Source of the DNA: a bacterium
Lineage (GTDB): Bacteria > Caldisericota > Caldisericia > Cryosericales > Cryosericaceae
DNA length: 18,133 bases
Reading direction: 5' to 3'
NCBI GenBank assembly: GCA_021373025.1
Contig: JAJFTL010000036.1
Coordinates: 1 to 18,133, forward strand
This document shows, in pieces, positions 241 through 18,133 of this stretch; position 1 is the stretch's first letter; each line of letters opens with the position of its first letter. A program made the position numbers and the translations under genes. Under the pieces are notes generated by a model. That model saw only the letters and a list, made by a program, of their open reading frames with translations, did no database searches and was not told the DNA's origin.

Positions 241-1617
241 TCAGGCTTCTATGACAACGACCTGGTCCGTCACCGAAGTAACGCGCCCGGAGATCGATGC
301 ATGAATACTTGCTCCAAGCTTGCCTTCAGCGGGGCTGCCAATCAACTGGCCTGTGGTTACTGTATCACCAACCGCTACCATGGGGACCGCAGGCACGCCG
401 ATGTGCTGTTTGAGACTGATGCTCACCCTGTCCGTACGCACGTCAGATTCATCCCAGTCGACAGGTCCAGCATGATACGCTCCAACGCCCAGACGGGCGA
501 CCAGGCGATCCGTAGGAACAAGCCTCCCTTCACGAAAGGCGTCTGGCGTGAGGTCTGTCCGGCGATGCACGTCATTCTTCCAGCCGGATGCTGCAAGCTC
601 GCGCTTTATCTTTTGGTAGAACTGCATGGGCGAAAGCTCGAGAGGGCAGGAGTAGGCCTCACAAAGACGACATTCGCAGCACAGGACTGCACTCGTGAGC
701 ACGTCATTTTTGACGTTGATGCCGTAGGCGCCAGCTCTCATGATCTCATGAGGGCTGAATCCATGACCAAGCAGGTGACGGGGGCAGAGGACGGTACAAT
801 CGCGGCATTGGTCGCAGCTCGCTTTGCCACGCCTGGTCCAGAGTTCGAGGGAGCGAGACATGAAGCGAACGACTTCATTCTCCACCGGGAGTACCAGGAT
901 GCCACCCGTGGTCTTGGTGATCGACTCCGTCTTCACGTCGGAAACGAGGTGCCCGGTCATGGGTCCGCCGACAACAACCCTGAGCTCATCTGCGCTACGC
1001 GTATAGCCGCCTGCCAGTTCGAGCACCTTGTCAAATGACATCCCTACAGGAACGTAGACAGTCTTGGGGGATTTGACCTCACCGTTGATCGTTACGTATC
1101 GGCGTGTCACTGGTATCCCTTCGTCAACCGCGCGTGCAATGTTGGCAAGCGTACCCACATTCTGCACGACACAGCCTACATTCAGAGGCAGCCCGGCCTC
1201 GGGGATAAGACGGCCTGTGACTTCGTAGACGAGACAGAACTCATCACCTGCTGGATACACGCTCTTCTCGATAATATAAAGGCTCACCGGCCATGCGTGT
1301 GCATCCTCAGAGTCCTTTTGACGCTCAAGTTCTGTTTCAAGTGCGGTGACAGCATGTGTATAGTGCGCCTTGACTGCAATAAGTCCGCGCTGCGCTCCTA
1401 CGGCCTGCATAACAAGTCGCATGCCACGGATGACGAGTTCGGGATGAGCCGCCATGAGCTGCTGGTCACACCGCAACATGGGTTCGCACTCAGCCCCGTT
1501 TGCAATGACGGTGTCCACATTCTTCGCAACAAGCTTCACGTGAGTTGGAAACCCGGCCCCTCCCGCTCCAACGATACCTGCTGCTTTGACGCGTTCTACG
1601 ATTTCTTCGGGAGTCAT
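241..1617 (-). CDS. pduS: PduS-like cob(II)alamin reductase / RnfC-family NADH:flavin Fe-S oxidoreductase
   Basis: 458 aa. The N-terminus has GAGGAGFPTHVK, the NADH/FMN-binding motif of the Complex1_51K, RnfC and PduS family. Two 4Fe-4S ferredoxin motifs follow (CDQCRDCTVLCP and CCECRLCEAYSCP). A C-terminal barrel domain is present, which is the PduS domain order. The start ATG overlaps the pduT stop as ATGA. Confidence 0.8.
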   Translation of the reverse strand: MTPEEIVERVKAAGIVGAGGAGFPTHVKLVAKNVDTVIANGAECEPMLRCDQQLMAAHPELVIRGMRLVMQAVGAQRGLIAVKAHYTHAVTALETELERQKDSEDAHAWPVSLYIIEKSVYPAGDEFCLVYEVTGRLIPEAGLPLNVGCVVQNVGTLANIARAVDEGIPVTRRYVTINGEVKSPKTVYVPVGMSFDKVLELAGGYTRSADELRVVVGGPMTGHLVSDVKTESITKTTGGILVLPVENEVVRFMSRSLELWTRRGKASCDQCRDCTVLCPRHLLGHGFSPHEIMRAGAYGINVKNDVLTSAVLCCECRLCEAYSCPLELSPMQFYQKIKRELAASGWKNDVHRRTDLTPDAFREGRLVPTDRLVARLGVGAYHAGPVDWDESDVRTDRVSISLKQHIGVPAVPMVAVGDTVTTGQLIGSPAEGKLGASIHASISGRVTSVTDQVVVIEA

Positions 1618-2165
1618 ATGATCTTTTCTCTGACCTGATCGGCAAGCTGTGAAATGACTGTCTTGCGGACAAGCAATCCATCTTCCGTCGGCCTGACGAT
1701 GCCGGCAGCGACTGACGCCTCGACGTCGGCGACTTCACCCTCCATGAGCAGGAAGCTCTTGCCCCCAAGTCCATTGGCGAGACGCAGCTCGAGCAAATTC
1801 ACTTCCGCCGCCTTGGCCGCCGCATCAGATGCCACAATGCACGACGCAGCAGTGACCGTTTCAATGATACCCAGCGCAGCCCCGTTTGTCGTTTCAGAAC
1901 TGAGATCCAGAGCAGAGAAAATTGCCGGATGAGCATTGGGCAGGAACAATGTATCCACGACGGATGCACCAGCTATCTGAACACCTGCTCGCAGAGCATT
2001 GCTGACCTGGCTCGTGTCGCCGCGGAACAGGACCATATACTTTCCAGGACAAATCGACCTGGCCTCAAGTAGCTCTACCGAAGCCCTCTTGACTGCTGCA
2101 TCTGCAGCTTCGATGCCTGCTGCAACACTGTCTGTCTCGATGAAGCCAATCGCTTTCTCAACCAT
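1614..2165 (-). CDS. pduT: PduT-like tandem-BMC-domain (BMC-T) shell protein with the Fe-S-ligating Cys
   Basis: About 183 aa with two BMC (Pfam PF00936-like) repeats: IGFIETDSVAAGIEAADAAVKRA and ALGIIETVTAASCIVASDAAAKAAEV. An SICPGKY motif matches the PduT TICPGKF motif holding the 4Fe-4S Cys. An ATG at 2165 is preceded by AGGAGG at 8 nt. The ORF track start at 2171 is a GTG two codons upstream. Confidence 0.75.
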   Translation of the reverse strand: MVEKAIGFIETDSVAAGIEAADAAVKRASVELLEARSICPGKYMVLFRGDTSQVSNALRAGVQIAGASVVDTLFLPNAHPAIFSALDLSSETTNGAALGIIETVTAASCIVASDAAAKAAEVNLLELRLANGLGGKSFLLMEGEVADVEASVAAGIVRPTEDGLLVRKTVISQLADQVREKII

Positions 2166-2233
2166 TGTCACTACCTCCTACCGAGCTCATGTTCTGCAGG
2201 GTCGAGCACTACATGCCCGCTTCATGCATGTTC

Positions 2234-3154
2234 TCACCACAACTGCGCGACTTCGCCCGCTATGTTGTTCATCGCAATACCAATGGGCGTCACGAACAGC
2301 GGCTCCCCTGGTATGATTGTCTCGATACCGGTAACTTCTTCAATGACACGGTCCATGCCAGGAAAACGTGCAGAACCTCCACACAGGTAGATCCGCTTGG
2401 GATGATAAGCCTCAACGTGACGCGATACAATGGTCGCGACTTTTTCCATAACTGCCTTGACAGCCGGGAAGAGCCTGGCCTGTTCAGCGGGATTCGTTTT
2501 GAGTGCCTCTGCATCCATGAATGGAATGTGCATAGCCCCAGCGACAACGAGGGTGAACTGCGTTCCGCCAGTTGGCTCATCCGCCGTATACACGACCTTG
2601 CCACCTTCAATGACGGCAAGCTTTGTCGTTCCACCACCAACGTCGACAACGACGCCGCTGTCGATCTGAAGGATCGTGTTTGCAGCAGTGGCTTCATCGA
2701 CAAGTCGGGAACATTCAATGCCGGCTCCCTGCAGCACGTTGCCTGTGGCACGCACTTCCGCTAGAGGAACGCCGGGCGGATAGGCCGTCGCAGCTGATTC
2801 GATCTTGCGTCCGATTCGCTCTTCCACCTGCTGTTTCAGCTTCCTGACGATGCTGATGGCGCCCATATAGTCAAACACGACTCCTTCCCGCACGACCTGA
2901 GCAAACTGGTAAGCGCCGGCAAGAGGTGTCATGTTTTCGTCCAGGACGACCAGGACCGTATAAGCAGTCCCAAGATCAACGCCAACATGTAGTTCGCCCT
3001 TGTATGATACCGACGGGGCGGGCGTTCCGGCATAGACGATGACCTTGTCGGCTTCATCGAGGACTTCCTGCAACCTCGGGTTCATGCCCCCCGACTCTGT
3101 TGCAAGCTTCAGGGCACTCCGCCTTTTCTCATCGACCCCTGACTGTATCATCAT
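2234..3154 (-). CDS. eutJ: EutJ, an actin/Hsp70-fold putative chaperonin of the eut operon
   Basis: 306 aa. The protein aligns along its length with E. coli EutJ, including the VGVDLGT phosphate-1 motif, DVGGGTT and LCGGSA motifs. The first ATG overlaps the pduO stop as ATGATGA. An alternative internal start (MNPRLQ) lies at 3085. Confidence 0.8.
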   Translation of the reverse strand: MMIQSGVDEKRRSALKLATESGGMNPRLQEVLDEADKVIVYAGTPAPSVSYKGELHVGVDLGTAYTVLVVLDENMTPLAGAYQFAQVVREGVVFDYMGAISIVRKLKQQVEERIGRKIESAATAYPPGVPLAEVRATGNVLQGAGIECSRLVDEATAANTILQIDSGVVVDVGGGTTKLAVIEGGKVVYTADEPTGGTQFTLVVAGAMHIPFMDAEALKTNPAEQARLFPAVKAVMEKVATIVSRHVEAYHPKRIYLCGGSARFPGMDRVIEEVTGIETIIPGEPLFVTPIGIAMNNIAGEVAQLW

Positions 3155-3690
3155 GCGTTATGTTCCTCTCCAGCTTCTTCATATCTTGCCAGTGCAAACA
3201 AGACATCCGAGGTTCTGTTGAGATATGCTGCCACGTTTTCGTTGGGAAGTTCACCAGACTCCATGAGGCCGATGACCCGCCGTTCTGCACGCCGGACGAC
3301 AGCGCGAGCCAGATCAATCGCAGCAGCTCCCACGGTCGCTCCCGGTATGATAAAGACGTTGGGCATGGACACCTTGCTCTCGATATCAACAATACATTGC
3401 TCGAGCTTTTTGACCATCTCTGCAGTGACAATCCACCCATGCTCCGCCAGCCTGTCATGGTACATGGGTTCCGTCGCCAGTTCGGCTGCCACAATACCAA
3501 GATCCTTCTGGATTCTGTCCAAGATCTCGCGAGAGTATTGTCGAACACACAGAGCCTTTGCGAGACCCAGTGTCGAGTTCAGTTCATCTATAGTTCCATA
3601 TGCTTCAGGCCGGGGGCTATTCTTGGAGACGCGCCCTCCATACAACAAACTCGTCTGTCCCTTGTCTCCAGCACCAATATTCGGTTTCAT
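3151..3690 (-). CDS. pduO: PduO-type ATP:cob(I)alamin adenosyltransferase
   Basis: 179 aa. The N-terminus GAGDKGQTSLLYGGRVSKNSPRPEAYGTIDELNS matches the PduO/MMAB family signature (TGDKG-TSL ... R-x-x-K ... E-x-YG-x-DEL). The size indicates the adenosyltransferase domain only, with no DUF336 extension. Confidence 0.85.
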   Translation of the reverse strand: MKPNIGAGDKGQTSLLYGGRVSKNSPRPEAYGTIDELNSTLGLAKALCVRQYSREILDRIQKDLGIVAAELATEPMYHDRLAEHGWIVTAEMVKKLEQCIVDIESKVSMPNVFIIPGATVGAAAIDLARAVVRRAERRVIGLMESGELPNENVAAYLNRTSDVLFALARYEEAGEEHNA

Positions 3691-4068: not shown

Positions 4069-4824
4069 CTACAGTTTGAGCGCGACGCCGCTCACCTTCT
4101 GCTCCAACATGCGCTTCGCGATATCAACAATCGTCGCTGCAGCTTCCATCGGGTTCAGGCCCTGGCTGTAGATGTTCGAGATACAGTTCCTTTCGCCATC
4201 AGTGTCAGTCATCTTTGCCTTATATGCCATGTAGGCGCTGAGACTGGTTTGAGTAACCAGGCCGGGCCGTTCACCGATCAGCATGATAGCGACGTCAGGC
4301 TGCAGAACACGGCACACGTCATTCAACAGACGAACACGACCATTGTCCACATAGAACGGTGTCCCAAATGTGATACCGGCAGCCTCAAAACCATGTTTCA
4401 AAGCTGGCAGCAGATCTGGCAGATTCTCCATGACAGCAGAAGACGAGAGTCCTTCACTGATAAACACCTGAACCTGCGCTCCCTTCTTGCAATGAGCAAG
4501 AATCGCTTCTTCAGCTTCCTTGGTGAGAATGCCACCTTTCTCGGGATGGGCGAGGTAATCGTGCTTGTCCGTACAGACTGTGGAAACGCGAAGCGCAACG
4601 CCATGCTCCGTCAGGAACTCGTCAGGGATCCTGGTCCAGATCGCATCCTTCGCCGATGCTTCATCAAGACGGAACGACAACCATGCATCCACGGGAGGCC
4701 TGGCTCCTACACGCCCCGTTGCAATACGTGCAGGAGTTGCTCGCATCATTCCTTCGATCGCTTCGCGGTTGTATGGATTCTTGACACCCATTGCCCTGTG
4801 CTCAAAACCTTTTAGTTCACCCAT
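4069..4824 (-). CDS. eutC: Ethanolamine ammonia-lyase small subunit EutC, copy 1 (short N-terminus)
   Basis: 251 aa. The conserved TPARIATGRVGARPP motif matches TPARIGVGRAGPRP in E. coli EutC. The C-terminal ERPGL...SAYMAYK region is conserved. It lies 15 nt downstream of eutB1. Confidence 0.85.
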   Translation of the reverse strand: MGELKGFEHRAMGVKNPYNREAIEGMMRATPARIATGRVGARPPVDAWLSFRLDEASAKDAIWTRIPDEFLTEHGVALRVSTVCTDKHDYLAHPEKGGILTKEAEEAILAHCKKGAQVQVFISEGLSSSAVMENLPDLLPALKHGFEAAGITFGTPFYVDNGRVRLLNDVCRVLQPDVAIMLIGERPGLVTQTSLSAYMAYKAKMTDTDGERNCISNIYSQGLNPMEAAATIVDIAKRMLEQKVSGVALKL

Positions 4825-4839: not shown

Positions 4840-6228
4840 CTACCAGAGGAAGATGTCAGACGGCTCGGCGGAGAAGATGGACGGATCGCCAGCTCTGTCA
4901 GTGAGTTTGCCATTTTTCAGCAAGCCCATTCGTTCCATCCAGCGCTCAAACTCGGGAGCCGGGTGCCGGTCAAAGACCTCGCGCATCGAGGCGTCATCAT
5001 GGTTGCTCGTGTCCTGGTAGCTCAGCATGACATCGTCACCCATGGGGATACCCATGTAGTAGACAGCACCACCAATCCCAGCAAGCAGGTTCGCCATTTC
5101 CTGACCGTTATGGTTCATATCAACATGGTTGACATAGCAGGGTGCCATGCCCATCGGGAATCCATGCATCTTGCCGGCAAACAAGTCTTCAAGAGTGCCG
5201 TAGGCGATCTGGAAGGTATCAAGATGGGTCTCCGGCCCGATGAACCCAGTGACATTGTTCACACAGAAAGGTCGGAAGTGACGGCCGTATCCATAGGTGC
5301 GGGACTCAAGTGTCTGTTCGTCGCAGCCGAAATCAAGACCGACCGACATCTCGGAGCCTTGGCCGGTCTCGAAATACATAACGTTGGGGCCTGCGCAGAA
5401 GGAGTACTCGCGAGCAAGAGCCCATGCCTCTTCCATCATCTTGAGGTCGATGCCGAAGCCCTTGTTGGCTGGCTCACATCCGGCAATGCTCTGGAAGAAC
5501 AGACCGATGTGTGCGCCACGTTTGGCGGCTTCCATTTGGCCGGTGATGTGCCCAAGAGCTGAGTTCTGGGTAGGAATCTGCCACTTTTCGATGAGCCCAT
5601 ACGTCATCTCAAGGATGCGCACGAGTGTATCTGGAGTTGGATCCACTGGGTTGACGCCGATAACGACATCGCCCGCACCATAGGAAAGGCCGTCAAGAAT
5701 CGAGGCACGAATGCCGTCGATGTCGTCCGTCGGGTGGTTTGGTTGGTTGCGGAAGGACATCGTTCCAGGCAAACCAATAGTGGTGTTGGCCGTTGTCACG
5801 TTAATGATTTTCTTGGATGCAACGACCAGGTCCATGACCGACATGATACGGATAACAGCAGAGATCATTTCCGAGGTCAGCCCGACACGAATTCGTTGAA
5901 TGTCCTCGTTGGTAGTGTTCTGATCAAGCAGGTATCCACGCAGGTCGGCGACGGTCCAACCTTTGATCTTGTTGTAGATAGTCTTGTTCGTATCGTCGAT
6001 GATGACGCGCGTAACTTCGTCTGTCTCATAGGGGAGAACGGGGTTTTCGAAGATATCCTGAAGGGTCAGATTCGCTACAACCCACTTGGCCGCGATACGC
6101 TCGCGTTCGGATTGTGCTGCGACCCCGATCAATTCATCGCCGGACCGCTTCTCTGCCGATTTGGCAAGGACATCCTTCACAGACTTGAAGGAATACGCCT
6201 GTCCTTGCAGCGTTGTTGTGAGATTCAT
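4840..6228 (-). CDS. eutB: Ethanolamine ammonia-lyase large subunit EutB, copy 1 (the more divergent paralogue)
   Basis: 462 aa. PNHPTDD, LSYGAGDVVIGVNP, NVMYFETGQGSE, GFIGPE and GIPMGDDVMLSYQ are EutB TIM-barrel signatures. The region after GFIGPE diverges markedly from canonical EutB and from copy 2. Confidence 0.9.
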   Translation of the reverse strand: MNLTTTLQGQAYSFKSVKDVLAKSAEKRSGDELIGVAAQSERERIAAKWVVANLTLQDIFENPVLPYETDEVTRVIIDDTNKTIYNKIKGWTVADLRGYLLDQNTTNEDIQRIRVGLTSEMISAVIRIMSVMDLVVASKKIINVTTANTTIGLPGTMSFRNQPNHPTDDIDGIRASILDGLSYGAGDVVIGVNPVDPTPDTLVRILEMTYGLIEKWQIPTQNSALGHITGQMEAAKRGAHIGLFFQSIAGCEPANKGFGIDLKMMEEAWALAREYSFCAGPNVMYFETGQGSEMSVGLDFGCDEQTLESRTYGYGRHFRPFCVNNVTGFIGPETHLDTFQIAYGTLEDLFAGKMHGFPMGMAPCYVNHVDMNHNGQEMANLLAGIGGAVYYMGIPMGDDVMLSYQDTSNHDDASMREVFDRHPAPEFERWMERMGLLKNGKLTDRAGDPSIFSAEPSDIFLW

Positions 6229-6341: not shown

Positions 6342-7586
6342 CTACGGAACGATTGGACTTGGCGTCGTTTTGCCAAGTTTGATCGTCTCCTGGAATGGAC
6401 GCCAGAGGCCAGTGTTCTCATCACGACCCTGAAGAAGCACCACGCGAGCCGCACTTGCTTGGCCAGGAAGTGCCTCCTTATACAGCGATCCAATATCTCC
6501 ACCCTTCACTCGATTGATGAGGTAGATCAGCTTCGTCTGTGGAAACTGGGTCATCATCTCAAAGTCACCATCGCTGTCGCCGGCAACAAAGAGAGGAGCT
6601 TCTTTGATGAAGTTGCGAATGACCGTTGCTTTTCCCATGCGCTGGGTCAGTTCATAGCCGGGTTCTTCACTCAGCTTGGCAATGTACTTCCCGGACGCAT
6701 CCGTCTGGAGACGAACGCCAATCACATGGTCTTCAGGAACGTCGTACCCGTTGATTGCGGCAACTGCCTGGACGACCGGCTCAAATGATGCAGATACCAC
6801 CCACACCTTCCAGCCATAATACCGCTGTTTCGACATCATGTCGATGATGCCCTGGGAAAGGCGGATGCCTGCCCTATATGTATACGAGGCTACAGCGGCT
6901 TTTCGCTCAAGACCTGTTGGGGCATGCATAGTAATCTTCTCGATCTTACGAGCAAGTGCATCATTGAGTGCGGCGACTGCCATCTTCTGGACTTCCGCCT
7001 CGGTCATCCCTTCGCAGAGAAAACAGACCCAAGGATACGAGTACTCGGCACCAATCTCGGGAGTGTCTGTCAGCCCATCATACATGAATGGCAGTTTGAC
7101 CAGAAAATCCTGATACTCTGGTGTCGCCGTGATTTCCTCCAGCGTCATCTTCTTGAGACCGATATAGTTGTCATACAAAAAGGCATAGTCGGCCTGAATG
7201 TCCGAGGCGAGGTCCGCAAGAACCACATTGCCATAATCGGCCGAAAACTTCACAACATTGGAATCCTTGAGGGTCTTTCCTGCAGCTTCCGGGATAATGC
7301 TGTTGAAAGCTTCTTTACTCATTGCATAGTCCAGGTTGAACATCTGGAAACGGAACATCGTCTCCATGATGTCATTGTAGATGCACGTATTATCCCAGTC
7401 ATAGACGGCCACCGGATGCGTCGGACCATACTTCTTGATAAACCAGTCCGTATAGATCCAGTTAAACGGTGTATAGCCAACGTACGTTCCGGACGGAACG
7501 CCGGCTGCCAGGGTGATACCTGAAACCGATGAAACGAGCAGTGCGACAAGGAGCACAATCGATATGATCTTGATGGTTCGTTTCAT
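6342..7586 (-). CDS. Secreted or membrane-anchored HAD-superfamily hydrolase (HAD-IB-like with a large cap domain)
   Basis: The start is re-assigned to the ATG at 7586, which is preceded by a GGGGA SD. The N-terminus MKRTIKIISIVLLVALLVSSVSGITLAAG is a signal peptide or signal anchor. HAD motif I is VAVYDWDNT (DxDxT). Motif II is VWVVSAS. Motif IV is LFVAGDSDGDFEMM. The ORF track extends the frame to 7748 through an intergenic hairpin, which is unlikely to be real coding sequence. Confidence 0.7.
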   Translation of the reverse strand: MKRTIKIISIVLLVALLVSSVSGITLAAGVPSGTYVGYTPFNWIYTDWFIKKYGPTHPVAVYDWDNTCIYNDIMETMFRFQMFNLDYAMSKEAFNSIIPEAAGKTLKDSNVVKFSADYGNVVLADLASDIQADYAFLYDNYIGLKKMTLEEITATPEYQDFLVKLPFMYDGLTDTPEIGAEYSYPWVCFLCEGMTEAEVQKMAVAALNDALARKIEKITMHAPTGLERKAAVASYTYRAGIRLSQGIIDMMSKQRYYGWKVWVVSASFEPVVQAVAAINGYDVPEDHVIGVRLQTDASGKYIAKLSEEPGYELTQRMGKATVIRNFIKEAPLFVAGDSDGDFEMMTQFPQTKLIYLINRVKGGDIGSLYKEALPGQASAARVVLLQGRDENTGLWRPFQETIKLGKTTPSPIVP

Positions 7587-7631
7587 ATTGTTTCCCCTTT
7601 CGTTGGGATGGGGCGTGCCTGGCATGTGCAA

Positions 7632-7674
7632 TGAGACGAGGGTCAGTTCACAAGAGCAGGCCAACCCTCGCCTC
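7632..7674 (-). promoter_or_regulatory. 12-bp inverted repeat (one G·U wobble) with a 20-nt spacer, located 45 to 90 nt upstream of the HAD-hydrolase start codon
   Basis: Minus-strand sequence: TGAGGCGAGGGT tggcctgctcttgtgaactg ACCCTCGTCTCA. It could be a 5'-UTR hairpin or an operator-like palindrome. Confidence 0.3.
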
Positions 7675-7705
7675 AGGAAACAATGTAACTTGCTCCACAT
7701 GATAC

Positions 7706-7738
7706 CGCTGGCTCGGCCCGTTTCGGGATGGAGCCAGC
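7706..7738 (-). promoter_or_regulatory. Stem-loop following the eutQ stop (GCTGGCTC...GAGCCAGC outer stem with an inner CCCG-AAA-CGGG). Candidate U-tract-less terminator or processing site.
   Basis: Minus-strand sequence: TAG TTATTGAGATACA GCTGGCTC CAT CCCG AAA CGGG CC GAGCCAGC GGTATCATG. The outer stem is an 8-bp perfect stem enclosing a 4-bp inner hairpin. Nothing downstream is U-rich. Confidence 0.35.
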
Positions 7739-7751
7739 TGTATCTCAATAA

Positions 7752-8546: not shown

Positions 8547-8846
8547 CTACTCAGCGTCGGCCGGCCGCTTCGGCAGCAACATTTCCGTGTCGCTGGCTGG
8601 ACGAGGGATAACATGAACCGAGACAAGTTCACCGACGCGCTGAGCGGCGGCTGCACCTGCATCGGTAGCAGCTTTGACAGCTCCGACGTCACCACGTACC
8701 ATAACGGTAACAAGTCCGGAACCGATTCGTTCCTGGCCAATCAGCTTGACGTTTGCTGCCTTGACCATGGCGTCGGCGGCCTCAATAGCTCCGACGAGTC
8801 CCTTGGTTTCAATCATGCCAAGTGCAATCATGCCTGGATCTGCCAT
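8547..8846 (-). CDS. eutM: BMC-H hexameric shell protein (EutM/PduA family)
   Basis: [32 protein letters not shown]...[32 protein letters not shown] is the canonical BMC domain. An ATG at 8846 is preceded by AAGGAG at 8 nt. The ORF track start at 8855 is a GTG. Confidence 0.85.
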
Positions 8847-8895
8847 AGGTATCACTCCTTTAAGAAAAAAATAGGAAAACTCTCTGGTTGTTGCT

Positions 8896-10273: not shown

Positions 10274-11773
10274 CTACCCCTTGTGCGCCAGTTCCTCGCG
10301 GATCACCTTGCGCACCATTGCCTCGATCTCTGACGTAGATGGCTTTTCAGATGTCGCCGAGGCAGCTGGAGCGGAAACGGACGATGACCTGCGCCCATCT
10401 ACGATGGGTGGTTCAAACGGCCGCAGTCCATACGCGATGCGTTTCACATTGAACAGGTGATACACCGTGATGTTGTCACTGCTGATACCACCACCCATAC
10501 CACCAGTAGCCAGGGTCAACGAGGGCATGAGGCCGGTCGTGTACCCAATGGCGCCGCCTGTGGTGCCGGCGTTGACAATGATACGGAATGCAGGTTTCTG
10601 AAGCCCGAACTGCATGATGATGTCCTCATCAGTGCAGTGTAATCCCATCGTGTGTCCCTTGCCGCCAAACTCAAGTATCTCGATGCACCGCGCACACCCA
10701 GCGTGCCACCCGTCCTCGACAAAAAAAGCAACCACGGGGGCAAGCTTCTCGCGCGAAAGAGGGACCTTTGGACCAACTTCGGAGAGCCTGGCGACCAGAA
10801 TGCGTGCCTCGTCAGGAACCTTGAATCCGGCTTGTTCGGCCAGCACCTGTGGTGAGCGCCCTACAAAGTTGGCCTGCATGAGTCCGTTCGAACGGATCAT
10901 GGCTTTGCCCAGCTTGTCAGCCTGCTCATCTGACAAGAAGTATGCCCCGTTTCTCTCCAGGGCTTTCACAAGCTGGTCGGCGATCGGTTTGTCTGCAATG
11001 ATGGCATTCTCATGAGCACAGATGACCGCGTGGTCAAAGTTGACGCTGGTCACAATGTCATGAGCTGCCTTCTCGATGTCCGCGCTGCGATCGACGTAGA
11101 GCGGAACGTTACCAGGACCGACGCCGAGTGCCGGTTTGCCTACGCTGTGCGCGTATGAAACCATGGCTTCGCCACCGGTTGCAACAATCAGCTTGATCTC
11201 GGGCCGCTTGAGCAGCTCCGATGTTCCTTCCATGCTGATGTGTGTCATGCAGCTGATGAGGCCCTTGGGGGCTCCAGCAGCCTCTGCCGCCTCTTCTAGA
11301 ATGCGAACCGCCTCAGCGGTACACTTCGGGGCCGAAGGGTGTGGAAGAATAATGATAGCATTGCGCGCCTTGACGGCGGTAATCGCATTGAAGATTGCTG
11401 TGGATGTCGGGTTGGTCGTGGGGACCATAGCGGCAATGACACCAAAGGGCCAGGCGATCTCGATGATCTTATTGGCTTCATCACGTCTGATAACGCCCTC
11501 TGTCCGAACATCCTTGATGGACATCCATACGTTCTTCGATGCAAACTGGTTTTTGATCGTCTTGTGCTCAGCGACACCCATGTGCGTCTCTTCGGCTGCC
11601 ATGCGGCCAAGACGCTCTGCTGCTTCGTATGCAGCTTCAGCCATCGATGCACAGACGACGTCAACCTGGTATTGGTTAAAGTGAACAAATGCTTCCTGCG
11701 CGACCTCAGCCTGCTGTGCCAGATTTCGGGCCTCTTGAATAGAGAGCAGGTCTTGGTCGAGTTCTTCCGGCAT
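10274..11773 (-). CDS. eutE: EutE/PduP-type CoA-acylating aldehyde dehydrogenase with a C-terminal encapsulation-peptide-like helix
   Basis: 499 aa with an ALDH fold. The catalytic-Cys region reads VNFDHAVICAHENAII. The ATGGEAMV region typical of acylating ALDHs is present. After the catalytic domain comes an S/A-rich linker (RRSSSVSAPAASATSEKPSTS), then an amphipathic helix EIEAMVRKVIREELAHKG at the extreme C-terminus. An SD AAGAGGAGG lies upstream. Confidence 0.9.
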   Translation of the reverse strand: MPEELDQDLLSIQEARNLAQQAEVAQEAFVHFNQYQVDVVCASMAEAAYEAAERLGRMAAEETHMGVAEHKTIKNQFASKNVWMSIKDVRTEGVIRRDEANKIIEIAWPFGVIAAMVPTTNPTSTAIFNAITAVKARNAIIILPHPSAPKCTAEAVRILEEAAEAAGAPKGLISCMTHISMEGTSELLKRPEIKLIVATGGEAMVSYAHSVGKPALGVGPGNVPLYVDRSADIEKAAHDIVTSVNFDHAVICAHENAIIADKPIADQLVKALERNGAYFLSDEQADKLGKAMIRSNGLMQANFVGRSPQVLAEQAGFKVPDEARILVARLSEVGPKVPLSREKLAPVVAFFVEDGWHAGCARCIEILEFGGKGHTMGLHCTDEDIIMQFGLQKPAFRIIVNAGTTGGAIGYTTGLMPSLTLATGGMGGGISSDNITVYHLFNVKRIAYGLRPFEPPIVDGRRSSSVSAPAASATSEKPSTSEIEAMVRKVIREELAHKG

Positions 11774-11865: not shown

Positions 11866-12540
11866 CTACTGGAAGGCCAGCGGGTCCTGGGCCACAGACA
11901 TGATGGCCTCATCGAACGCACGGCAGGCGGCACGGCAAGCACTCTGTGTGCCGACCAGATAAGCGCCCTGATAGTTGGTCTCACTGAGCTGCGTGAATGC
12001 GCCAACTGATACATCAGCAGCCTTCAATGCCCGCTCCATCGCATAGGTACCTTCAAGAGGCGGTGCAGTGATGTATGCAATCGGTGTGCCGGCTGGAACT
12101 CCGGCCTCCTTCGAGAGATATGTGCCGGTACGGGAGATTGTGTACGCCAGCCAGACCAGTGTGGGCACAACACTAAAGTGCGGCATTGTGACCGTCGAGT
12201 ATCGCAGCGAGTCCACAAACTCGAAGACTGCATTGATCCCCGCAGTAGCTTCTGCAGGATTTGGCGCCGCCAGGAAAAGCATAGCTTCGCCCGAAATGGG
12301 ACCAGACGGGTAGCTACCACCAGCGAAGTGCGAGCGGCAGTATGCTACACGGACCTCGGCTTTCTTGGTCGCTTCATCTCCGCCGATATACAGCGGATCA
12401 TCGATATTGCAGGTGAACATTGCCAGACTCTTCTCACCTTCGAGGAGACCCAGTGTCTTGGCCATGTCGGGATGAACATTGGGAATGAGTCTCACCGACA
12501 GGATTTCTGGCTTCAGGGTACGTTCCATCTCTAGAGCCAT
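11866..12540 (-). CDS. eutL: EutL, a tandem-domain BMC-T shell protein
   Basis: 224 aa. It aligns along its length with E. coli EutL, including IGGDEATKKAEVRVAY, GPNPAEATAG, VSRTGTYLS, YITAPPLE and GTQSACRAACRAF. An SD GGAAGGAG lies upstream. Confidence 0.85.
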   Translation of the reverse strand: MALEMERTLKPEILSVRLIPNVHPDMAKTLGLLEGEKSLAMFTCNIDDPLYIGGDEATKKAEVRVAYCRSHFAGGSYPSGPISGEAMLFLAAPNPAEATAGINAVFEFVDSLRYSTVTMPHFSVVPTLVWLAYTISRTGTYLSKEAGVPAGTPIAYITAPPLEGTYAMERALKAADVSVGAFTQLSETNYQGAYLVGTQSACRAACRAFDEAIMSVAQDPLAFQ

Positions 12541-16435: not shown

Positions 16436-17233
16436 TTACTTTTCTGCTTTGTGATTGTTCTTTCTTGCAGCATCGTTTTTGTCAACAAACAGATATGCCT
16501 TCAGTGACGTAACCAATGCCTTCTTTGCCCCCTGCACTTTCTTGAGTTCCTCGACTGAACCGAATGGTCCCTGCTGCTCACGAAACTCGACAATGCGCTC
16601 CGCAAGTGCAGGACCCACACCGGGCAAGGCATCAAGCTGACTTGCTGTTGCCGTGTTCAGATTGACTCGCTTTCCCGGGGTCCTGGACACCGGCTGTTGC
16701 GCAGCAAGAGAGAAGTCCGCGTGAGCGGGCTGGATGGGCGATCGTATAGGAGCGGTTTCCCCTGCGGGCACTGTGCTCACCTTCTGTTCCGCAGGAATCG
16801 CGGCTTCTTCTGCTGAAGCTGTCAATGCCTGTGCGCCGGGCTCAGCAGGCGTTTTGACCGAAGGTGACGCATCCATGCTTCCGGGTACCGGAGTCGTGCC
16901 GGGTGCAGGACTCGCTCCCTCGCCAACGGGGAGTCCAAGGTTCCTGTTCATCGCATCGACGATCATATCAATGTCGCGATCTGGACGTGGAATGACGTGA
17001 ATGGACACCAATTCCCCCACCCGCTGCGCAGCGGCTGCCCCTGCATCCGTGGCTGCCTTCACTGCTCCAACATCGCCACGAACAGCAACCGTCACCAGGC
17101 CGTCTCCAGAGTATCCCTTCCCGACAAGCCGCACATTGGCGGACTTGACCATGGCATCTGCCGCCTCAATGGCACCAATAAGCCCCCTGGTCTCAATCAA
17201 CCCCAACGCAACAAGCTTTTCGCTGTCAGGCAT
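16436..17233 (-). CDS. BMC-H shell domain fused by a long P/A/S/T-rich linker to a C-terminal ComEA-like helix-hairpin-helix domain
   Basis: Residues 1 to about 90 form a canonical BMC domain ([32 protein letters not shown]...[13 protein letters not shown]), about 80% identical to the eutM product. An approximately 90-residue low-complexity linker follows. Residues from about 185 read [55 protein letters not shown]. This matches the ComEA C-terminal HhH repeat region (INLNTA..EL..LPGIGP..A..I..YRE.NG.F.S.EDL..V.GIG...L..L). The second HhH lacks the GIG motif. Confidence 0.8.
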
Positions 17234-17271
17234 GGTACCCCATCCTCAGCCTACCGTTCAGTAGAGCCCGG

Positions 17272-17565
17272 TCATGACTTGTTGAAGGTATCGTGGCCAT
17301 CAACTTCCAGGGAATCAAGGATACCGACGATCGTGGCATCGGCAGGAGCCTGGTCTGTGAGATCCGTTTGTCTGCCCGCGCTGCCGAGAGCTACGAGGAC
17401 AAGTTCTCCCTCGCCAGCGCCTACGGCGTCAACGGCAACGATCGGGTTGCCCTCCAGCAGTTCATTCCGTACCGTCGCCTGTTGAACGATCAAGAGCTTG
17501 CGGGCCGAAAGTTTCCCGGCCTTGATCGTTGAGACTGCCGAGCCAACAACGCGAGCAATGATCAT
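17272..17565 (-). CDS. eutN: EutN/PduN/CcmL-family BMC-P pentameric vertex protein
   Basis: 97 aa. MIIARVVGSAVSTIKAGKLSARKLLIVQQ...IVAVDAVGAGEGELVLVALGSAGRQ matches the EutN/CcmL fold signature (M-x-I-A-x-V-x-G-x-V-x-S-T-x-K...D-x-x-G-A-G-x-G-E-x-V-L-V). An SD GGGAGGA lies 8 nt upstream. Confidence 0.8.
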   Translation of the reverse strand: MIIARVVGSAVSTIKAGKLSARKLLIVQQATVRNELLEGNPIVAVDAVGAGEGELVLVALGSAGRQTDLTDQAPADATIVGILDSLEVDGHDTFNKS

Positions 17566-17875: not shown

Positions 17876-18133
17876 TCACCACACGCTGGCCTGTTTGCCG
17901 GACAAGGATCCCAGTTTCGGTTGATTTCCCTCAAGCAGTTCCTGCACGGTCTCCTCGTTCCTGGGTGCTTCGCGTACCCCACCGTTGGCGACGACATAGA
18001 GCCGGTCCGGCAGCATCCGTATGGTCTCCAGATTGTGCGTCGACAGTACGACTGATTTGCGCCTGGCTGTAGCCCAGGAGATCATGCCATGCAGTTCCCG
18101 CAGGCTGGGGAGGTCCAGGTGCAGCTCGGGCTC
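17876..18133 (-). CDS. ABC-transporter ATP-binding protein, C-terminal part (the 5' end lies beyond the window edge)
   Basis: The frame runs open to the window end: ...EPELHLDLPSLRELHGMISWATARRKSVVLSTHNLETIRMLPDRLYVVANGGVRE.... The Walker-B DEP, D-loop LD and H-loop STHN spacing is typical of ABC ATPases. The stop is the TGA at 17876-17878. Confidence 0.5.
   Translation of the reverse strand, partial: EPELHLDLPSLRELHGMISWATARRKSVVLSTHNLETIRMLPDRLYVVANGGVREAPRNEETVQELLEGNQPKLGSLSGKQASVW

Follow-up and report, generated by a model that had tools for sequence, protein, structure and literature searches.

A BMC-H shell protein fused to a ComEA-type helix-hairpin-helix domain in an ethanolamine-utilisation operon

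For the spacing of bacterial microcompartments (BMCs) in the cell and their inheritance, carboxysomes use the McdAB system. For the catabolic Eut and Pdu compartments there are genetic hints only, as EutK and PduK mutants pile up their compartments at the poles. Specifically, Eut compartments of Salmonella ΔeutK are static at the poles and a nucleic-acid-binding positioning role has been proposed for EutK (PMC12487888), so that the first-pass annotation of the DNA discussed here, which had called the function of EutK unknown, is outdated on this point. Outside microcompartments, the Caulobacter phasin PhaH places polyhydroxybutyrate (PHB) granules on the nucleoid through a helix-hairpin-helix (HhH) domain, and other phasins have histone-like DNA-binding ends for this (PMC13052382). 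Here we describe a gene from a stretch of 18,133 nucleotides (contig JAJFTL010000036.1, family Cryosericaceae; "the window" means this whole stretch). It encodes a shell protein of the BMC-H type fused to an HhH domain of the type found in the competence protein ComEA, and it is the second gene of an ethanolamine-utilisation (eut) operon. The fusion is an undescribed structural variant of the shell hexamer with a tail of the nucleic-acid-binding type and does not represent a system of a new kind. Full-text literature searches found no paper in which an HhH or ComEA domain is linked with a BMC shell protein. The BMC-HhH fusion is also unmentioned in the main text and the 18 supplementary files of the 2021 BMC catalogue, which on this point states only that BMC-H extensions reach 200 residues.

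Three segments make up the fusion protein, namely a BMC-H domain, then a disordered linker some 90 residues long and finally a ComEA-type (HhH)2 domain. Reading the open reading frame (ORF) from the sequence places it on the minus strand and agrees with the first-pass coordinates, 16436-17233. The gene and its parts are the following:

16436..17233, minus strand: BMC-H / linker / HhH fusion ORF; ATG at 17233, TAA at 16436-16438, 265 amino acids plus stop
17243..17247, minus strand: GAGGA, a putative Shine-Dalgarno-like motif read from the sequence, 9 nt 5' of the fusion ATG
16982..17209, minus strand: BMC domain (PF00936, Pfam), residues 9-84, with K30 in 'KSAN', the edge motif R83-P84 and the pore loop G-Y-S-G-D-G
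16679..16927, minus strand: disordered Pro/Ala/Ser/Thr/Glu-rich linker, residues 103-185
16490..16672, minus strand: ComEA-type atypical (HhH)2 domain, residues 188-248 (HHH_3, TIGR00426, Foldseek)
16613..16621, minus strand: hairpin 1, G205-V206-G207, canonical G-Φ-G, followed by P208-A209-L210 and the invariant R213
16523..16531, minus strand: hairpin 2, G235-A236-K237, degenerate with the second Gly replaced, followed by the nearly invariant K238
16439..16486, minus strand: Lys/Arg-rich C-terminal tail, residues 250-265, modelled with low confidence

The fusion of BMC-H with a ComEA-type HhH domain is real and conserved. In a search of 5.8 billion proteins the BMC+HHH_3 architecture was found full-length in >50 clusters at 46-99% identity, drawn from NCBI, JGI, ENA and Logan assemblies. 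One protein (P0001) is 99% identical to the window's fusion, and relatives with 46-85% identity can be aligned to it from end to end. Since the same architecture recurs full-length in so many clusters, the fusion is neither a chance event nor an assembly artefact. The first-pass annotation had proposed a neighbourhood search for recurrence of BMC-HhH fusions in related eut loci, and this search finds the fusion in the same slot in seven relatives (L001, L081, L083, L085, L086, L087, L090), in the order EutN, fusion, EutA, EutB, EutC, EutL, aldehyde dehydrogenase. These loci mostly run on to EutH, EutM and EutQ; L090 stops inside EutC. Locus L088 is readable just to the gene after the fusion, and the frameshifted L089 was read in part.

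Public records at first sight suggest another explanation, namely that a frameshift or mis-assembly has joined an eutM-like and a comEA-like gene. A search with the tail only returns 'ComEA' proteins of 79-133 amino acids that are 73-79% identical to it. The records of L090, L001 and L089 name just the HhH end, as a 'ComEA family DNA-binding protein' of 104-133 amino acids, and L089 (5414-6240) has BMC and HhH as separate ORFs. However, these short 'ComEA' genes occupy the same EutN-x-EutA slot, and in L090 (5548-6366) and L001 (10001-10780) the DNA holds one continuous ORF of 259-266 amino acids that the annotation has shortened. To split the fusion gene in L089 two frameshifts within about 150 nt are needed, and its 538-kb contig also carries a truncated EutN and a split ABC-transporter gene, which are typical long-read indel errors. 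Moreover, >50 independent clusters hold the single frame. Separate BMC and ComEA genes in related genomes, which the first-pass annotation had named as evidence that would speak against a fusion, are thus only apparent, being annotation truncations (L090, L001) or frameshifts (L089). We therefore rejected frameshift or mis-assembly and give this explanation next to no chance. As the records reduce the gene to a stand-alone 'ComEA', the fusion is hidden from annotation-based surveys.

The fusion protein is a member of the BMC-H family. It has a single, non-permuted BMC domain that matches Pfam profile positions 1-75 of 75 with 93.3 bits (cutoff 24.5; E=8.7e-27). Identity to the EutM encoded in the same locus, previously estimated at about 80%, is 76% over 86 amino acids by BLASTP and 83% across the ungapped Pfam core. 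Inter-hexamer edges of BMC-H proteins depend on a Lys in the 'KAAN' motif and an Arg in the '(P/A)RPH' motif (PMC8217296). The corresponding K30 ('KSAN') and R83 ('PRPD') of the fusion are invariant across 52 family members, the set to which the counts out of 52 below refer, and the pore-loop glycines G43 and G45 are invariant as well. In the AlphaFold2 monomer model the predicted local distance difference test (pLDDT) of the BMC domain is about 90. The pore loop itself (window 17093-17122, minus strand, residues 38-47) reads G-Y-S-G-[D/E]-G in most fusions and R-I-G-S-G in EutM; the acidic form would bring six acidic side chains to the pore of the hexamer. In basal fusions the pore is still EutM-like.

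The C-terminal module quoted in the first-pass annotation sits at residues 190-244, with the letters as quoted. A profile search and a structure prediction had been suggested for it, and both give a positive answer. Pfam HHH_3 matches residues 188-248 with 72.3 bits (cutoff 27; E=3.5e-20) and NCBIfam TIGR00426, 'ComEA HhH repeat region', matches with 58.7 bits (cutoff 53.1). When the module is compared with PDB sequences by phmmer, the HhH of EEPD1 (2.7e-20) and ComEA 8DSS (4.8e-12) are found, together with ComEA 8DFK and 2DUY. The full-length AlphaFold2 model was built with the 52-sequence alignment and has a pLDDT of about 90 in the HhH domain; for the fold search the tail was modelled alone. 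Foldseek superposes this model on the DNA-binding domain of Geobacillus ComEA (8DSS) at 1.0 Å root-mean-square deviation (rmsd) over 65 columns and 46% identity, and then matches Thermus 2DUY (E=6.5e-5), Tex (3BZK, rmsd 1.0 Å) and KIF22. Thus the predicted fold is HhH and the ComEA-type assignment stands by profile, PDB-sequence and fold searches; the part of the likeness that does not stand is the pair of critical DNA-contact lysines of ComEA, which are A209 and L210 here. Degeneracy of the second HhH, also claimed at first pass, is borne out. Hairpin 2 reads G-A-K where the consensus is G-I-G, and of the 52 relatives 36 have K at position 237, 13 have N and just 1 has G.

The linker had been described as a flexible, Pro/Ala/Ser/Thr-rich segment of about 90 residues. 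This description holds: these four residues make up 52% of positions 93-186 and pLDDT is <50 over residues 103-185. Linker length varies from 33 to 121 amino acids in relatives and its sequence is little conserved. Its charge is strongly acidic in the near clade (down to -13), and in basal members the linker is polyproline-like. The basic C-terminal tail is found in the near clade, where its net charge is mostly +4 to +6; the window's own tail has +2 and the distant clade has none.

For these proteins we infer a role in DNA binding and positioning. Specifically, a shell hexamer that displays HhH domains would bind DNA non-specifically and thereby tether the compartments to the nucleoid and distribute them on it, a proposal that we consider quite possible though short of probable. 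The EutM-like BMC domain would tile the facets of the shell, in homo-hexamers or in hexamers shared with EutM. Work by Sutter et al. from 2017 reportedly places both termini of BMC-H proteins on the concave side, and in solved shells this side is turned to the cytosol. If the C-terminus of the fusion faces the cytosol in the same way, each subunit would therefore project the linker of about 90 residues, the HhH domain and the Lys/Arg tail. Up to six HhH domains per hexamer would then be held on leashes of about 90 residues, with an estimated span of about 30 nm fully stretched and of several nm as random coil. Double-stranded DNA (dsDNA) would be bound without sequence preference through the hairpin backbone amides together with R213, K231/K232, K237/K238 and K245. 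Many such weak contacts would hold compartments on the nucleoid, so that they stay dispersed, do not clump at the poles and are shared between daughter cells.

The positioning role is favoured because of the ΔeutK phenotype, the precedent of the PHB-granule phasin and the lack of an EutK_C or ParA-type gene. No match to ParA, CbiA or AAA_31 is found by Pfam among the 17 window genes, and near the relatives a single ParA-type gene occurs, at L088, as part of a Tad-pilus cluster. Since neither an EutK_C domain nor a ParA-type gene was found, the role of EutK is otherwise unfilled in the 18-kb operon.

Several points weigh against this proposal. The outward topology of the tail would follow from other shells, and EutK-type extended BMC-H proteins can be monomeric or poor hexamer formers (PMC12058022). 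PsbU and GspK, in which the same fold is used without DNA, are among the weaker Pfam and Foldseek matches. Some distant members have acidic HhH domains (to -6, isoelectric point 4.3) and no basic tail. The tail is inessential to the compartment type, because sister loci lack the tail or the whole gene, as described below. Vibrio ComEA needs the K62/K63 pair that follows hairpin 1 for the DNA gel shift (PMC3879209), and the DNA-contact Lys (Vibrio K63, Bacillus K164, Geobacillus K166) has been described as being as conserved as the HhH signature itself (PMC9747964). In the fusion the K62/K63 equivalents are A209 and L210, and 52/52 sequences have Leu at the latter position. The G-Φ-G of the second hairpin is absent in 51/52 sequences, and the equivalents of Bacillus K193 and K197 are Ala/Thr and Ser. 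Since the critical contact lysines are replaced, DNA binding of ComEA cannot be transferred to the fusion residue for residue.

Other contact positions are kept. Hairpin 1 (G-Φ-G-P), R213 and R218 are invariant, K238 is found in 48/52 sequences and K/R at 231-232 in at least 50/52. Among the four lysines tested in Bacillus only the equivalent of K199 is kept (K245 in the window, K/R in 51/52), the lysine whose loss cuts transformation >100-fold in Bacillus (PMC9747964). Net charge was dropped as a case against DNA binding in the distant members, because the proven DNA-binding domains of ComEA are themselves negative: the DNA-shifting Geobacillus and Bacillus domains have -2, while the HhH domain of the window has +3. 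The Lys-to-Leu exchange, taken at first as proof of lost DNA binding, also had to be softened, as Leu is the most frequent residue at the 'K164' site (38/60) of the closest ComEA-like proteins that stand alone and bear a signal peptide. Leu is present, too, in a protein of full ComEA architecture (a transmembrane (TM) segment, SLBB and six HHH_3 domains) and in 2DUY, which may be the Thermus ComEA for which dsDNA binding is reported. Judged from these residue patterns, the fusion tail probably binds nucleic acid, using a set of contacts partly different from that of the studied ComEAs.

Some of the same observations could be read in another way, with the HhH domain as a protein-protein or structural module, comparable to PsbU, GspK or the HhH dimer of ERCC1-XPF, that recruits a cytosolic partner or bridges compartments or tiles. 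Loss of the DNA-contact lysine pair, the degenerate second hairpin and the acidic HhH domains of some members would agree with such a module, as would the weak but real matches to the models of PsbU and the type II secretion system (T2SS) protein GspK. Just N-terminal to the HhH lie the semi-conserved aromatic motifs 'FPGRG' and 'AHAGFSL', which are possible short linear binding motifs. However, the HHH_3 match (E=3.5e-20) is far stronger than those to PsbU (2e-4) and T2SSK (4e-7), every one of the top structural neighbours binds nucleic acid, conservation extends to the phosphate-binding hairpin and a ring of basic residues, and the loci read contain no candidate partner gene whose occurrence follows that of the fusion. 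A protein-binding module is for these reasons unlikely in our view. The tail could also bind RNA or another polyanion, such as eut mRNA, polyphosphate or nucleotide cofactors, and link translation of the operon with shell assembly or retain a ligand on the surface of the shell. The HhH of RNA-binding Tex is one of the closest folds (3BZK, rmsd 1.0 Å), an HhH contacts the phosphate backbone and would discriminate poorly among polyanions, and a basic tail would bind any of them. Against this stand the nearest sequence relatives, which are ComEA-type dsDNA binders, the lack of any structured RNA detected by Rfam in the window and the lack of a known precedent for RNA on microcompartment shells, and we judge an RNA or polyanion ligand distinctly improbable.

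A different view gives the leading part to the disordered linker, which would act as an entropic brush against sticking of compartments, as has been proposed for PduK, and leaves the HhH a minor one. Every member has the linker, which is disordered and of low complexity throughout, with an acidic character in the near clade and a polyproline-like one in basal members; PduK, with its disordered extension, affects the distribution of Pdu compartments (PMC13052382, PMC12487888). Conservation points in the opposite direction, since the HhH domain has 14 invariant columns and the linker none, and the HhH is kept in every member down to 46% identity, which is not expected of a passenger. A brush as the main function therefore appears very unlikely to us, and tethering to the nucleoid remains the reading that we prefer.

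The BMC-HhH family is narrow and mostly metagenomic. A genome scan with one genome per species, in which the best 80 of 593 confirmed matches were kept as loci, has the fusion in 1 of these 80, from a metagenome-assembled genome (MAG) of Candidatus Cryosericum. L090 is also a Cryosericum MAG, and its fusion and EutA are near-identical to those of the window, so that the window is probably from this lineage. Further carriers are MAGs labelled Spirochaetia and Clostridia. Among 1.84 billion representatives at 50% identity, about 7 of the top 150 profile matches are fusions. Long tblastn matches in Clostridia loci were considered as HhH fusions and rejected, being multi-BMC proteins or BMC genes in tandem. 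The searches also yielded proteins of about 290-390 amino acids that contain three or four BMC domains in a row (P0047, P0063, P0081), and proteins with 3-7 tandem ComEA-type HhH domains, namely P0128 (TM + SLBB + 6×HHH_3) and about 100 others.

Comparison of the loci shows that the HhH tail is an optional addition to an EutN-first type of eut locus. Two loci with the same gene order, L059 (2804-3157) and L048 (6810-7169), carry an unfused BMC-H of about 95 amino acids at position 2, and three more (L002, L009, L035) have no gene at the fusion's slot. Within the family, basal fusions (P0092, P0095, P0137) consist of an EutM-like domain, a short polyproline spacer and a canonical HhH whose hairpin 2 is G-I/V-G, and they are 88-92% identical to the EutM core of the window. 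The window's clade is derived: it has the acidic pore loop (G-Y-S-G-D/E-G), a mostly longer linker (to 121 residues) and a hairpin 2 changed to G-x-K or G-x-N, and its nearest relatives have the Lys/Arg tail. The tail was therefore joined to a duplicated EutM and elaborated later.

The whole 18-kb window is one minus-strand ethanolamine-utilisation operon in a set of 17 window genes. The order is EutN, fusion, EutA, EutB, EutC, EutL, aldehyde dehydrogenase, EutH, EutM and EutQ, followed by an HAD-family protein, a second EutB/EutC pair, a PduO-type adenosyltransferase, EutJ, a tandem-BMC protein and a PduS-like flavoprotein. Other shell proteins encoded in it are:

17272..17565, minus strand: EutN, BMC-P vertex protein and first operon gene (Pfam EutN_CcmL), directly 5' of the fusion in every locus read
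11866..12540, minus strand: EutL-type BMC-T shell protein of the same compartment; weak Pfam BMC match, conserved slot after EutC
8547..8855, minus strand: EutM, canonical BMC-H paralogue (Pfam BMC)
1614..2171, minus strand: tandem-BMC (PduT-like) shell protein; Pfam BMC in two stretches, E=4e-43

It is likely that EutM forms the major shell hexamer, and EutM is a possible hetero-hexamer partner of the fusion. The second EutB/EutC pair (4840-6228 and 4069-4824, minus strand) shares 50% and 39% identity with the first. EutC1 has an N-terminal extension of about 30 residues, a possible encapsulation peptide, that is missing from EutC2; the second lyase (EutB2/EutC2) may remain unencapsulated or have another amino alcohol as its substrate. 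At the C-terminus of the aldehyde dehydrogenase (10274-10390, minus strand) a Ser/Ala/Pro-rich linker is followed by an amphipathic helix, EIEAMVRKVIREEL. It looks like an encapsulation peptide, as in the type I (EUT2-like) AldDh of the 2021 catalogue. The HAD-family protein (6342-7748, minus strand) has a hydrophobic N-terminus, MKRTIKIISIVLLVALLVSSVSG, and is found at the same position in L081 and L083; this putative exported phosphatase may release ethanolamine. The 3' end of the operon (241-3690, minus strand) encodes the PduO-type adenosyltransferase, EutJ, the PduT-like tandem-BMC protein and the PduS-like flavoprotein, the last with the domains Complex1_51K, SLBB, 4Fe-4S and RnfC_N. Thus a Pdu-style B12 reactivation set lies inside the eut locus.

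On the 5' side of the operon there is a Peripla_BP_2 / FecCD / ABC_tran transporter of the B12 or iron-siderophore uptake type (L081 6209-9367; L090 1758-4889), of which the window contains only the 3' end of the ATPase gene (17877-18133, minus strand). A cobalamin riboswitch was not detected by Rfam in the 310-nt gap before eutN. Regulatory RNA near the fusion was likewise dropped as a candidate, as Rfam is empty at the gathering threshold window-wide and at E ≤ 1 upstream of eutN.

If the proposed tethering is true, the HhH version would give a portable module for testing and engineering microcompartment placement, and a tag of about 80 residues could serve to anchor synthetic shells to DNA. 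Independent fusion of a shell hexamer to a different DNA-binding fold would be strong comparative evidence and would point to shell-nucleoid contact as the function for which such tails were selected. It is a fair possibility, and we advance it with slightly more reserve than the tethering itself, that a shell hexamer combined with a non-specific DNA-binding domain is a repeatedly evolved way to position metabolosomes by passive hitch-hiking on the nucleoid without a ParA ATPase. EutK, with its helix-turn-helix tail, and the BMC-HhH family would be two convergent versions of it. With its function suggested by comparison, the fusion gives independent comparative evidence on how metabolosomes are positioned, and it is easily approached by experiment.

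Among the known systems, ComEA is closest to the tail. The fusion has the same atypical two-HhH domain without the connector helix and retains hairpin 1 and a residue equivalent to Bacillus K199. It differs in being a cytosolic protein in which a BMC domain takes the place of ComEA's signal peptide or membrane anchor and SLBB or oligomerisation domain, in having no com operon, and in having A-L at the K62/K63 (Bacillus K164) sites and no second G-Φ-G. On topology, full-length model and gene context we rejected the possibility that the fusion is a true ComEA or competence protein. The full-length comE model TIGR01259 scores 63 bits on the fusion (cutoff 152) and matches just residues 182-249. 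A signal peptide or membrane anchor is not found, the N-terminus being a soluble BMC domain from residue 9, whereas the nearest true ComEA-like proteins (P0282, P0292) have hydrophobic N-termini. In the loci read no association with comEC or other competence genes was found, and the fusion always lies between eutN and eutA.

The overall plan of the protein is closest to EutK, which also has a single N-terminal BMC domain with an extension ending in a small helical domain of the nucleic-acid-binding type and is encoded in a eut operon. The EutK tail is EutK_C, of the helix-turn-helix type, while the tail of the fusion is an unrelated ComEA-type (HhH)2; the linker alone has about 90 residues as compared to 40-70 for the whole EutK extension. 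Gene position differs as well, the fusion gene being second, after eutN, and the EutK gene adjoining eutL/eutR. An orthologue of EutK was rejected: EutK_C (PF16365) gives no Pfam match in the fusion even at E ≤ 1, and the NCBIfam EutK model NF012010 reaches 83 bits, far below its cutoff of 218, over residues 8-110 only. PduK is a BMC-H protein with a long, largely unstructured C-terminal extension, and its loss leads to polar aggregation of compartments. It ends in a Cys-rich putative Fe-S motif and not in a nucleic-acid-binding fold.

As proposed for the fusion, McdAB uses the nucleoid as a matrix for spreading compartments. It is, however, a two-protein ATPase/adaptor system that makes gradients, McdB is not a shell protein, and the window has no ParA-like gene. 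A passive tether would give dispersal and not active equidistant spacing. PhaH, PhaM and PhaF join an organelle-surface end and a non-specific DNA-binding end in a single chain, as the fusion is predicted to do. Their organelle-binding parts are non-homologous to the BMC domain and the cargo is a polymer granule instead of a protein shell. The fusion probably functions like EutK and the PhaH-type tethers, by convergence.

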